Assembly (NCBI GenBank): GCA_029856435.1
Contig: JAHQXB010000063.1
Coordinates: forward strand, 27,053 to 91,052
Source of the DNA: Candidatus Jordarchaeia archaeon
GTDB taxonomy: Archaea; Asgardarchaeota; Jordiarchaeia; Jordiarchaeales; Jordiarchaeaceae
Direction: 5' to 3'
Length of the DNA: 64,000 nt
The position numbers were made by a program, and so were the translations under genes. Every line of letters starts with the position of its first letter. Within the stretch, counting starts at the first letter, position 1. Positions 2-44,054 of the stretch are shown here, piece after piece. The notes below the pieces were generated by a model, which saw nothing but the letters and a program-made list of their open reading frames with translations, ran no database searches and was not told the origin of the DNA.

Positions 2-640
2 ACAGTATATGCAGAAGGAAAATTCGTCGTCGTTTTCTGAGAATAGTGTGGTGCTCCCATAGTTTTGTGGATAGTTTGATTCGTTTTGATTCATTTCTTC
101 AGAGTGGTTAAAAATGTCAGATATGGATTCTGTGGTGTGGCTTCCTTTTTCTTTGGGAGCGGGTGGGATTGAGTTGTGCTCGGTGTTTTCTGCATTTTCG
201 AATAGGTCTGACGCTGTGATTGGTTTATTGCGGTAGGGGTATGGTTTGGCGGATTCTTTGGGTTCGCAGTATCGAGGCCCGAGGTTATTAATGTCCAGAC
301 CTTTTGAGTATTCTATGAATTTATTGTGCAAGTATGTTTTTAATCGAAAATAGTCTTCTTTAGATAAGCCCAGTAGTTCAAGTGCTCTATCTCTGTTTTC
401 GCATGGTTTTTCTAAGCTGCAGCAGTAGGCTAAGCTACCATAACAGGTGGTTGCCATTGCTTGTTCTTGTGGACTTTTAAATATGGGGGGTATGCGGGCA
501 CCACCAATTATTAGGACGCTCCCCTCTTCTACCTTTATGTCTGCGAAGCCTTCTGTTATTAGAGCTTGTAAAACTTGGTTTGCAGGGTAGACTCTGCCAC
601 CAATAACGATGAACCCCTCAGCCTTAGGCGCCCTTTCCAT
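2..640 (-). CDS. Partial ORF running off the window start; Cys-rich protein with a methanogenesis-marker-9-like motif, a low-complexity linker and the start of a CxxC
   Basis: Manual translation from ATG at 640 is open to the window edge: MERAPKAEGF...TCYGSLAYCCSLEKPCENRDRALELLGLSKEDYFRLK...FSFCIYC. Absent from the ORF track because it is truncated. Confidence 0.65.
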   Translation of the reverse strand, partial: MERAPKAEGFIVIGGRVYPANQVLQALITEGFADIKVEEGSVLIIGGARIPPIFKSPQEQAMATTCYGSLAYCCSLEKPCENRDRALELLGLSKEDYFRLKTYLHNKFIEYSKGLDINNLGPRYCEPKESAKPYPYRNKPITASDLFENAENTEHNSIPPAPKEKGSHTTESISDIFNHSEEMNQNESNYPQNYGSTTLFSENDDEFSFCIYC

Positions 641-812
641 GCGTATCCATCCAGAGTTTAAAAGTATATTTGAAAACAGCTGTTTTAAGCAGTATTAACA
701 TTTTTACGCTTCAAATAGCGGTTCTTAAAATATTTTTTAATGTCCATATTAATAATTGTAAATATTTTCCACGTATATTGGTTTAGCTAGTTTTTAATTA
801 AAGGCTAGATGT

Positions 813-1343
813 TCATCCGCAAGGTGCTTCGGAGAGAATTATTTCTTCCCTTTTTTTAGATGTTTTCCTTTTTCTGACCATATTTCTGTTATTAATTTTT
901 TCAGTTTTTCCCGATGGGCAGTTGTGCTTTTCGGGTAGTCTATGTTCGGCGCAGTAGTATCCGCCGCAGCGTTTACATTTGAAGGTTAAGGGAGTTATGG
1001 CCAAGCAGTAGTTGCAAGTTCCGCTGGCATATCCTAAGCGTGTCACCGTTATTTCTTCGAATTTCACCTTTTTGCCTAAGAGGAGGTATAGTCTTATTAA
1101 GATTTTTTTTGCTATTTCTTCGCACTCCTCTTTAGAAATACGCTCTTCTGGAATTATTATGTTTATTTTATCTCCGTCCACGATGAGAGTGAGGTCTACA
1201 ATTCGTCCATTGTGTTCTATGCTTCCCCGGGCAATATTTTGGCCAATAATACTTAAAGCCATTTCTGAGGTTAATCTCCGGAAGATTACTTGATTTAAGC
1301 CATTAATTAGCGCCTGAAAAATTTGATTACTCATACTTTTCAC
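813..1343 (-). CDS. AN1-type zinc-finger protein
   Basis: C-terminal CNYC-x8-CKRC-x4-CAEH-x5-HNC fits the AN1 zinc-finger spacing. Confidence 0.8.
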   Translation of the reverse strand: MKSMSNQIFQALINGLNQVIFRRLTSEMALSIIGQNIARGSIEHNGRIVDLTLIVDGDKINIIIPEERISKEECEEIAKKILIRLYLLLGKKVKFEEITVTRLGYASGTCNYCLAITPLTFKCKRCGGYYCAEHRLPEKHNCPSGKTEKINNRNMVRKRKTSKKREEIILSEAPCG

Positions 1344-20559: not shown

Positions 20560-21930
20560 ATGACACAAACGCAAAAAGGAGAAAAATTTGAAGTCAAAGA
20601 CCTAAAACTAGCACCAAGCGGACGAGCAACAATTGAGTGGGCAGAATCAAGAATGCCCGTGCTCATGCAAATAAGAGAGAGGTTCCGAAAAGAAAAACCG
20701 CTTAAAAACACCATAGTAGGAGCATGCCTCCATGTAACAAAAGAAACAGCAGTTCTTGCAAAAACCCTGAAAGCTGGAGGTGCAGAAGTCTACCTCTGTG
20801 CCTCAAACCCCCTATCAACACAGGACCATGTAGCCGCCGCACTGGTAGAAGAAGGAATAAACACATTCGCCTGGAAAGGCATGGACTACGAAGGCTACTA
20901 CCGAGCAATAGCCAACGTTATTAAGGGAGAACCGAACATCACACTAGACGACGGCGCCGACCTAGTATCAACCTTAATCAAACTCAAAAGAGGAGAAACC
21001 GGCGAGGAAATCAAGGTAGTTAAGAAAATTCTTGGAAGCCGAACAGACTGGGCGGACAAAGTATGGGCCGGAGCCGAGGAGACCACAACGGGCGTAATCC
21101 GCCTTAGAGCCATGGCAAAAGATAACGTGCTACTATACCCAATTATAGCTACAAATGATACCCCCACAAAATGGGAAACATAAACACCCCCCGTGTTTAA
21201 GCCCAAATTTGACAACCTGTGGGGAACTGGGCAAAGCACCATAGACGGCATACTGAGAGCAACAGCAGACCTTATCGCGGGCAAAATTTTTGTAGTCGCA
21301 GGGTATGGCCATTGCGGTAGAGGCGTAGCGCTAAGAGCTAAGGGGCTAGGAGCGAGAAGAGTCATCATATGCGAGATAAATCCACATCGAGCCTTAACAG
21401 CCGCCTTAGAGGGTATGGAAGTAATGCCCATGAGGGAAGCCGCAGAGGTGGGAGACATTTTCGTAACCGCCACAGGATGCAAGAACGTCATAAATGCAGA
21501 ACATATGAAAAAGATGAAAAACGGAGCAGTGATGTGTAACACAGGTCACTTTAATGTGGAAATAAATATACCTGACTTGGAGAAAATCAGCGTTAGCAAG
21601 AGAGAGATAAGACCACTAGTCGATGAGTACACACTGGAGGATGGAAGAAAAATCTACCTACTAGCCCAAGGCAGGCTTGTGAATCTAGCATGTGCTGAGG
21701 GACACCCAAGCGAAGTTATGGACATGAGCTTTTCTGATCAGGCTTTAGCTGTGGAGTGGATTGTTAAGAATAGGGATAAGCTGTCTGGGATGGGTAGTGT
21801 GGTTTTGGATATTCCTGAAGAGATTGATAGGACTGTTGCAGAATTGAAGTGTAAGGCTATGGGTCTTAGATTAGATGTTTTGACCCCTGAGCAGGAAGCT
21901 TATTTGTCGGGCTGGGCTGAAGGAACCTAG
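20560..21930 (+). CDS. ahcY: S-adenosylhomocysteine hydrolase, spliced join(20560..21177,21208..21930), 446 aa
   Basis: [27 protein letters not shown] in part 1; [37 protein letters not shown] in part 2. Removing 30 nt restores [11 protein letters not shown]. Confidence 0.95.
21178..21207 (+). other. BHB-type intron in ahcY mRNA (30 nt, in-frame TAA)
   Basis: Central helix UGGG/CCCA; bulges AA|A and AA|U; inner stem C(A)UAAACAC/GUGUUU(A)G; outer AA/UU; spliced TGG GAA TTT GAC. Confidence 0.9.
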
Positions 21931-22408: not shown

Positions 22409-22611
22409 AGGAATCCTCTCTATTGTATTTTTGTGTAGGAAAGGATATGAACCCCTCGAAATTTAATAGGCTGATTTCATTATTGGGGGAGGTAAGATGT
22501 ATAGGAAAGTTTTAATTACGTTTTTAGGATTAAATTTTGCAGATATTTGGCGTTGATTGTTGATTTTTGTGGTTTGGATGTTGATGTTAATGTTGATTGG
22601 AGGAGAATCTG

Positions 22612-23730
22612 ATGGATACTGAGGAAAAGGTTCAGCGTGTCTTGCGTGGCTTGAGTGAGGTTATTACTGTTGAGGATTTGCGCAATTTGTTTGAGGTAGA
22701 TAACCACCCTAAGGCTTACATAGGTGTTGAGCCTTCTGGATAAACCTTTTAGGCTTTCTAGGGTTCCAGAATATTTCATTTGGGCTGGGTGGTTTGGGCC
22801 TGGAAGGTTCAGGATTTGGTTCTTTGTGATGTGGATATGCATGTTCTCGAAGCGACTTGGCATGCTAAGATTAATGACAAGTTTGGTGGAAACATGGATA
22901 CCATACACACCTGTGCAAAGTATATTGAGCACTGTTTACAAGCGTTGGGTGTAGATATTGGTAGGGTTCGTTTTCCAAAGGCTGAGGATCTTATGGATAG
23001 TTTGGATTATTGGGCCACAGTGATAAACATTGCTAAAAACACTACGCTGGCACGTATTAAGAGAGCTATGAGTATTATGGGCCGCAAAGTAGACGATGCT
23101 GAATCGGATTATTCAAAAACGCTTTATCCTTGCATACAAGTGGCTGACATCTTATATGCTGGTTTTAAGCTGTGTCTGGGTGGGACTGACCAGAGAAGAG
23201 CTCACATATTGGCGAGGGAGTTGGCTCCTAAGTTCGGCTTGGATTGGAAGCCGGTAGCGATTCACACTCCTCTCCTCATAGGCTTGGAGGGATTATCGAG
23301 GATGGAGGTTGAAGGTGTGAATGAGGATGTTTTAATGGAGGCCAAGATGTCGAAATCCAAACCTCAAACAGCAATTTTTATACATGATAAGCCAGAGGAA
23401 ATCAGGAGTAAAATCTCTGCTGCCTTTTGCCCACCTAAACAGGTAGAATTCAATCCAATAATTGAAATAAATAGGCTTCTTCTTTTTTCCAGAGAAGGTT
23501 TCATTCTTCATGTGGAACGTGAGGAAAAATTTGGAGGGGATGTAGATTTTGAGAGCTTTGATGAATTGAAATCTGCCTACAGCGCCGGTAATCTCCATCC
23601 TCTGGACTTGAAACGGGCTACTGCAGAGGCACTCATTGCACTGCTGAAAAATGTTAGACAACATTTTGAAAAGAATAGTGAAGCCCGTAACCTTTTAGAA
23701 ACATTAAAAAAGGCTACAGTGACCCGGTAA
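22612..23730 (+). CDS. tyrS: Tyrosyl-tRNA synthetase, spliced join(22612..22741,22772..23730), 362 aa
   Basis: GGAGG then ATG at 22612 gives MDTEEKVQRVLRGLSEVIT...AYIGVEPSG; spliced HIGH motif PSGLFHLGW; downstream YPCIQVADI, GGTDQRRAH, KMSKS. Confidence 0.95.
22742..22771 (+). other. BHB-type intron in tyrS mRNA (30 nt; unspliced frame has TAA and two TAG)
   Basis: Central helix CUGG/CCAG; bulges AU|A and AA|U; inner stem AACCUU/AGGGUU; spliced GGA T|TA TTT CAT. Confidence 0.9.
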
Positions 23731-43751: not shown

Positions 43752-43935
43752 TGGTCCCGCAGGCCGGACTTTCAAATATAGTGTATAGTGCACTATAAAC
43801 TTTGAACCAGCGACGTTGGGGCTGAGTACTATGCGCACCCAGTTATCCCGGTGTCTGAGTGCCTACTGGGGTAAGCCACACTTAACGAGTGCAGCTCTAC
43901 AGCCGGGCACTCTAGCCAGTCTGAGTTACTGCGGG
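43752..43935 (-). tRNA. tRNA-Tyr(GUA) with three introns (43896-43853, 43844-43815, 43800-43769), CCA encoded
   Basis: Spliced CCCGCAG TA ACTCAGACTGGCTAGAGT G CCCGG CTGTAGA CCGGG ATGTC GCTGG TTCAAAT CCGGC CTGCGGG ACCA; C1-G72 Tyr identity pair; T-loop BHB UUCA/UGAA. The variable-loop boundary could shift by 1 nt. Confidence 0.92.
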
Positions 43936-44054
43936 ACCTTCAGGGTATCCTTTTCAGTTATGATTTCTAGATGTTTATTGTCAGATAAATTTTTCGTATT
44001 TGCGGATGCGGATTTAACTTGTATATTTTTTAAGGGTTGGTTGGGAGATGTGTT

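Follow-up and report, generated by a model that had tools for sequence, protein, structure and literature searches.

The closest described counterpart of the locus considered here is the pre-mRNA intron of crenarchaeal cbf5 genes, work on which is reportedly also credited to Watanabe 2002 and Yoshinari 2006. The locus itself is tyrS, encoding tyrosyl-tRNA synthetase (TyrRS), in a 64,000-nt stretch of the genome of Candidatus Jordarchaeia archaeon (assembly GCA_029856435.1, contig JAHQXB010000063.1, positions 27,053 to 91,052 of the forward strand). This whole stretch is called the window below, and coordinates given without a contig are positions in it. As of 2009, cbf5 was the sole archaeal gene with confirmed pre-mRNA splicing, with introns predicted in others, and in cbf5 pre-mRNA introns the cleavage separates the second residue from the third in both bulges of a bulge-helix-bulge (BHB) structure (PMC2738675). 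In tRNA genes of Freyarchaeia and Atabeyarchaeia, non-canonical BHB introns are reported to be very abundant (PMC11291895; bioRxiv 10.64898/2026.10.13.758758). [quoted passage not shown]

The tyrS frame starts with ATG at 22612, opens as MDTEEK...AYIGVEPSG, including the conserved AYIG...EPSG segment, and reaches the Gly codon GGA (22738-22740), after which it meets the stop codons TAA (22741-22743), TAG (22750-22752) and TAG (22759-22761). The same frame resumes as F-H-L-G-W 39 bases on from the Gly codon and ends with the stop codon TAA at 23728-23730. The parts of the gene are as follows.

22599-22605, plus strand: Shine-Dalgarno-like sequence GGAGGAG, as read from the sequence, with 6 nt between its end and the start codon
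22612-23730, plus strand: tyrS, the gene with an insert at 22742-22771
22612-22741, plus strand: tyrS exon 1, from M1 to EPSG, 43 codons and the T of the junction Leu codon
22742-22771, plus strand: BHB-type intron of 30 nt, with in-frame TAA, TAG and TAG, coinciding with the 10-residue gap of the homologue 2cya
22772-23730, plus strand: tyrS exon 2, the TA of the junction Leu codon followed by F-H-L-G-W, with KMSKS inside

The mechanical list of open reading frames (ORFs) contains only two at this locus, of 48 and 316 aa. The longer one (22780-23730) is in frame with exon 1 and starts with TTG, the codon for the Leu in HLGW; the His of the HIGH motif and the first 46 residues of the enzyme are thus missing from it. 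The original prediction, made from the sequence alone, had described both an N-terminus cut off by TAA and two TAG codons and an ORF product lacking this site, and both descriptions agree with what is read here. The truncated 316-aa "TyrRS" is a systematic annotation error that the intron explains.

Comparison with homologues delimits the insert. Exon 1 matches positions 1-43 of the NCBIfam profile of archaeal tyrosine--tRNA ligase (NF006330, E 4.9e-10), and exon 2 matches positions 47-339 (E 5.4e-106, 354.5 bits with the cut-off at 220); with HLGW restored at the junction and KMSKS present, the two exons together represent a full-length archaeal-type TyrRS by this profile. The structure of the Aeropyrum pernix enzyme (PDB 2cya), aligned with the tyrS stops read as X, is matched over residues 2-365 (E 1.9e-110) with a single gap of 10 residues exactly over the insert, where EPSG, ten residues and HLGW stand against EPSGV-AHIGW. 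Since this gap is 10 residues long, homology alone identifies 30 nt of tyrS as extra.

The insert has the arrangement of archaeal pre-tRNA introns, that is, the exon strand of the central helix H, a bulge, the intron hairpin, the intron strand of H, and the second bulge. The central helix comprises 4 bp, the two 3-nt bulges lie on opposite strands, and the inner stem has six pairs, one of them G-U.

22736-22739, plus strand: 5' strand of helix H, CUGG, lying in exon codons TCT-GG and pairing with 22766-22769
22740-22742, plus strand: 5' bulge AUA, with the predicted cut at 22741/22742, after the second bulge nucleotide
22743-22765, plus strand: intron hairpin h', AACCUU (22743-22748) pairing with AGGGUU (22760-22765) around a variable apical part (22749-22759)
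22766-22769, plus strand: 3' strand of helix H, CCAG, on the intron side, pairing with 22736-22739
22770-22772, plus strand: 3' bulge AAU, with the predicted cut at 22771/22772 and weak pairing downstream

The cut rule established for cbf5, when applied to these bulges, removes 22742-22771, exactly 30 nt. Thus, two independent criteria, the spacing of homologues and the BHB cut rule, yield the same 30 nt. Their removal gives GGA T/TA TTT CAT TTG GGC TGG, translated as G L F H L G W, and a predicted product of 362 aa with the junction EPSG-L-F-HLGW. The predicted spliced RNA of the source genome has ...CCUUCUGGAU joined to UAUUUCAU..., that is, ...CUGGAU/UAUUUCAU, and the equivalent predicted junction in the complete Freyarchaeia genome CP147778.1 is ...GGAU/UAUUUCAUAUAGG. 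The predicted junction peptide, AYIGVEPSGLFHLGWVVWAWK, is reproduced from the spliced sequence, and the helix, bulge and inner-stem elements proposed earlier are all found where they had been placed. In the window, a single occurrence of the exact motif stands against 0.02 expected; this is a weak argument, the comparative ones being strong.

An insert is present at the tyrS site in all six species of the genus (6/6) and in three metagenome contigs. It comes in five distinct versions of 30, 30, 31, 31 and 31 nt. The 31-nt versions place the exons in different DNA frames, and hence exact excision is needed to keep the frame; the same cuts, applied to all 30- and 31-nt versions, produce full-length proteins of 362-366 aa, all with EPSGLFH(L/I)GW. 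That one cut rule rescues both lengths, together with the position of the homologue gap, bears out the initial placement of an intron at 22742-22771 within the HIGH motif. The nearest uninterrupted orthologues in the tree, from other Asgard families, have GVEPSGLFH(V/I)GW, and the uninterrupted Asgard orthologues L015 and L027 share the junction residues with the predicted product. As the nearest uninterrupted orthologues carry L-F, the residues predicted at the junction are the ancestral ones, in agreement with the proposed T/TA codon and the resulting PSG-L-F-H-L-G-W.

The conservation follows the predicted structure. All four pairs of CUGG/CCAG are invariant in six distinct sequences, and the 3' bulge AAU is invariant in all versions. 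The single variable bulge base is U or C in the 5' bulge (AUA or ACA), and it is the first base of the junction codon, which is TTA or CTA, both encoding Leu. The six inner stem pairs are retained in 100% of cases, although one side has changed in two of them (A-U to G-U and U-G to C-G), while the apical part of the hairpin differs in four of the five versions. Among the four closest species, synonymous differences in exon 1 number 6-10 and non-synonymous ones 0-1, the dN/dS of exon 2 is 0.04-0.08, and no changes are observed in the 30 nt of the intron at dS of 0.15-0.47; dN/dS values of exon 2 involving the genome G005 are unreliable because of a 4-codon indel left unaligned. Both exons of tyrS are under strong purifying selection.

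Outside the genus, no insert is found at the tyrS site in a sample of 151 Asgard genomes, and all four sister-family genomes having tyrS (4/4) lack it. In the TyrRS tree, the eight intron-bearing sequences form one clade (support 100/100) beside intron-less Asgard sequences, a topology that fits a single gain of the intron at the base of the genus. The sister-family enzymes (L028, L030, L032, L045) are about 42% identical to those of the genus and belong to a different clade of Asgard TyrRS sequences; judging by these sequences, a replacement of tyrS seems to have taken place in one of the two families, through either transfer or differential paralogue loss.

Two side observations concern tyrS-like sequences of other Asgard genomes. 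In six of them, the tyrS match contains one or two internal stops and no extra length (G034:C1:2075962-2076936, G076, G086, G126 and G132 in family f5, G091 in family f24); these stops probably mark the natural end of the gene. In G036, a partial TyrRS-like ORF of 196 aa (C9:509747-510301, minus strand, profile positions 164-337) lies beside a full tyrS at 510772-511803.

The interrupted gene has no intact substitute among the PF00579 matches. The source genome (97.8% complete, 181 contigs, 5.7% contamination) has two such matches, tyrS and a 389-aa protein scoring as tryptophan--tRNA ligase (TrpRS), and the closed, 100%-complete genome G005 of the genus has no PF00579 match besides its interrupted tyrS and a second, weak one of the TrpRS kind. 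Hence, the second intact tyrS that would have spoken against the initial proposal is found in neither genome. Since the only copy is interrupted, active TyrRS almost certainly requires splicing of the mRNA.

The enzymes that might perform this splicing are encoded. The source genome contains two EndA paralogues, both uninterrupted, and one rtcB. For the first paralogue (192 aa; L042, 1178-1756), the nearest match is the alpha subunit, the catalytic one, of the A. pernix heterotetramer (3p1z_B, E 3.2e-45), while the second (197 aa; L043, 1195-1788) aligns to Methanocaldococcus jannaschii EndA and has Thr in place of the catalytic His. This pair fits an EndA of the (alpha-beta)2 type, which is described as able to cut non-canonical introns (PMC5829648; PMC2738675). 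Thus, both an EndA of the type able to cut relaxed motifs and RtcB are present in the gene complement.

The proposed course of events is the following. In the pre-mRNA, the exon CUGG would pair with the intron CCAG, forming the 4-bp helix between the bulges AUA and AAU, along with the intron hairpin. EndA, presumably a heterotetramer of the catalytic alpha paralogue and the paralogue lacking the catalytic His, would cut after the second nucleotide of each bulge, and RtcB would join the exons, the intron probably being circularised. The join would create the Leu codon U/UA and the frame ...EPSG-L-F-HLGW... of the 362-aa TyrRS. The unspliced mRNA would yield a 43-residue peptide only, because a stop lies directly at the 5' splice site or within four codons of it. 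From the genomic sequences we infer both the actual cutting and joining of the tyrS pre-mRNA and the role of EndA and RtcB as its agents.

Several observations on the structure weigh against this account. The outer helix h at the 3' bulge has at most one pair, in contrast to the solid 6-bp stem h', and since it is almost absent, the motif is of the relaxed HBh' type rather than the strict hBHBh'. The BHB conformer lies 2.4-3.9 kcal/mol above the minimum-energy fold, which adds UU/AA pairs to the helix and removes the 3' bulge, and the local fold shows no gain in stability over shuffled sequence (z = -0.12). No compensatory double substitutions occur in the helices among these close relatives, and covariation in shuffles equals the observed value; in their absence, the helices are backed by conservation only. 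Finally, ribosomes could compete with the folding, as the 5' strand of H consists of translated exon codons.

Other explanations of the interrupted frame have to be set against these data. A pseudogene, inactivated by the 30-nt insertion and decaying, with Tyr-tRNA supplied by a different enzyme or from a gene that the assembly lacks, would account for the three in-frame stops and for gene callers yielding the truncated 316-aa ORF only, and the contig number and contamination of the assembly leave some room for it; yet it is very improbable, given that neither the source genome nor the closed genome of the genus encodes another TyrRS, that both exons are under strong purifying selection, and that the insert is kept in eight diverged lineages, in every one of which the helix and bulges are preserved and the frame can be restored. 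Hardly better placed is translation across the gap, that is, bypass of the phage T4 gene 60 type, with take-off at GGA and landing downstream, or stop readthrough, both without RNA splicing. Here GGA is followed by a stop and a hairpin, as at the gene 60 take-off site, and bypass could tolerate gaps of either 30 or 31 nt. Nevertheless, the gap contains no matching GGA landing codon, after an in-frame landing on GGU, PSG and HLGW would be four residues apart (SRIF), compared to two in every homologue, and in the versions with the ACA bulge the take-off codon is followed by CAA rather than a stop. Readthrough, in turn, would have to pass three stops of two kinds and does not rescue the 31-nt versions.

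Split genes are known in some archaea, and the locus could be read as one, with an N-terminal peptide of 43 aa and a C-terminal product of the 316-aa ORF, made separately, assembling into an active enzyme: there are two ORFs, and exon 1 comes with a start and a Shine-Dalgarno-like site of its own. We regard this as the least probable explanation, since the only downstream start is at the Leu of HLGW, so that the catalytic His and L-F would be lost, no ribosome-binding site precedes the 316-aa ORF, and the conserved helix and bulges, as well as the synonymous change of the bulge base, would be left unexplained. It is also quite unlikely that the intron is real and is removed by another route, either self-splicing or an unknown pair of nuclease and ligase. 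The relaxed motif, its distance from the minimum-energy fold and the fact that the role of EndA and RtcB is a prediction would allow such a route, but an insert of 30 nt falls far below the size of group I or II ribozymes and matches no Rfam family, the boundaries coincide exactly with the second/third bulge positions at which EndA cuts (PMC2738675), and an EndA of broad-specificity type is encoded. A self-splicing group I or II intron, whose ribozyme core spans hundreds of nucleotides, and an intein, an in-frame domain for protein splicing, considered as separate candidates, are ruled out by the size of 30-31 nt, the stop codons, the frame shift in some versions and the lack of an Rfam match. 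The reading as a BHB intron spliced by EndA and RtcB accordingly keeps the high probability given above.

The same genome has further interrupted protein-coding genes. Directly upstream of tyrS, the S-adenosylhomocysteine hydrolase gene ahcY (20560-21930, plus strand) contains a 30-nt insert at 21178-21207 with an in-frame stop, shaped as UGGG-AAA-hairpin-CCCA-AAU; it lies in the TK..FDN motif, and solved S-adenosylhomocysteine hydrolases align with a 10-residue gap. The only copy of rtcB (source genome G000, contig C93, 1547-1576, minus strand, L044) has a 30-nt BHB-type insert with TGA inside the metal-binding motif LPD/AHQGYG, with a CCCG/CGGG helix, bulges ACA and AAG, and the inner stem CAUG/CAUG, which implies that synthesis of new ligase would need ligase already present. 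In cbf5 (contig C73, 22783-22813, minus strand, L054), two exon ORFs (1295-1543 and 493-1266, minus strand) match positions 2-67 and 73-322 of the Cbf5 profile, and the BHB-shaped insert of 31 nt splits the codon of the catalytic Asp, G/AU (GHAGTL-D-PKVTG), the position also split by the crenarchaeal cbf5 introns (PMC2738675). The gene pcm of protein-L-isoaspartate O-methyltransferase (contig C109, 12093-12124, minus strand, L055) has a BHB-shaped insert of 32 nt in GQTISAPH/MVV, its exon ORFs matching profile positions 5-65 and 64-214. Removal of the inserts restores hallmark motifs in ahcY, rtcB, cbf5 and pcm. The inserts of tyrS and of the other genes have a common architecture and different sequences and, by this comparison, are not copies of one element.

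A census of the whole genome for BHB-shaped inserts joining two coding frames, with frame-shifted cuts as decoys, produced 137,903 BHB-like candidates and 1438 hits with the true cut, compared to 1524 and 1494 with the decoys. With strict filters these numbers are 9 and 4-6, respectively, and the strict list recovered tyrS and rtcB and pointed to cbf5 and pcm. Because BHB-like shapes are so common, and true cuts are no more frequent than decoys, the census gives no total of mRNA introns. The tyrS intron appears to belong to a wider invasion of this lineage's protein genes, and the intron burden reported for its tRNA genes extends to mRNAs. That tRNA-type introns have colonised many protein genes of Freyarchaeia, core genes of translation and RNA processing such as tyrS, cbf5 and rtcB among them, as a lineage-wide state of which tyrS is one case, has in our judgement somewhat better than even odds; if so, gene expression in Freyarchaeia would routinely depend on mRNA splicing.

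The window also contains a tRNA-Tyr(GUA) gene (about 43757-43937, minus strand) with encoded CCA, which confirms the tRNA-Tyr suggested near 43.8 kb and shows it to be heavily interrupted. Its three apparent intervening sequences, with approximate boundaries read by eye, lie at 37/38 (about 43 nt), in the variable region (about 30 nt) and in the T-loop (about 32 nt). No tRNA or other RNA family is reported for the 64-kb window by ARAGORN or by Rfam at gathering thresholds, and a lenient Rfam scan around 43.8 kb misses this tRNA-Tyr too. The likeness of the tyrS 5' splice region (CUGGAU/A) to the tRNA-Tyr anticodon loop (CUGUAG/A), considered as possible mimicry, was judged to be a chance similarity of A-rich bulges. 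The original prediction had gone on to propose regulatory coupling, since TyrRS and tRNA-Tyr would depend on the same splicing machinery. This part found no specific support: 92-95% of tRNA genes in Freyarchaeia are reported to have introns (PMC11291895), and several unrelated mRNAs carry them as well, so the shared need for splicing enzymes is general rather than tyrosine-specific. Less likely than the lineage-wide state is the narrower idea that the tyrS intron serves as a control point, linking the production of TyrRS to the capacity for splicing or to the maturation of tRNA-Tyr.

In searchable papers, splicing of an archaeal coding sequence by tRNA-processing enzymes is confirmed for cbf5 only, in Crenarchaeota, and no report of a BHB intron in tyrS of Asgard archaea, Freyarchaeia or Jordarchaeia is found in the searchable literature, a coverage that leaves out most subscription journals. 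The accessible text of the paper on a complete Freyarchaeia genome deals with tRNA introns only and does not mention TyrRS (PMC11291895), and that of a 2026 preprint on Asgard tRNA introns contains no mention of mRNA, its single reference to protein-coding sequence being to neighbouring genes (bioRxiv 10.64898/2026.10.13.758758). The tyrS junction is short and precisely predicted, and the intron raises the question of how splicing and translation are coordinated in a cell without a nucleus.

Among the described systems, the BHB processing in the 5' untranslated region of a Haloferax volcanii mRNA resembles the tyrS case in that the splicing endonuclease acts on an mRNA (PMC7714728); that site is apparently outside the coding sequence, whereas in tyrS the reading frame itself is interrupted. 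The tRNA introns of Freyarchaeia are similar to the tyrS intron in having helix H, two 3-nt bulges and an intron hairpin, in their size and in their lineage, and they are presumably processed by the same enzymes, but the host RNA of the tyrS intron is an mRNA, and the intron carries in-frame stops.

The closest resemblance is to the crenarchaeal cbf5 intron (Aeropyrum, Sulfolobales, Desulfurococcales; PMC2738675), likewise a short intron in a coding sequence, within a catalytic motif. Both introns have a relaxed BHB in which the predicted cuts, placed after the second of the three bulge nucleotides, split a codon, the hosts of both have EndA of the heterotetramer type with a broad substrate range, and both genes are mis-annotated by gene callers as truncated or frameshifted. 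Unlike crenarchaeal cbf5, tyrS encodes an aminoacyl-tRNA synthetase rather than a pseudouridine synthase, and it belongs to Asgard archaea (Jordarchaeia/Freyarchaeia) rather than to Crenarchaeota. Its intron is restricted to one genus, is known here from genomic sequence alone, and is one of several in protein genes of its genome, cbf5 included. Taken together, the comparisons indicate that tyrS very probably represents a cbf5-type case, that is, a spliced BHB intron in the mRNA of an essential aminoacyl-tRNA synthetase, the gene and the phylum both being new to this kind.
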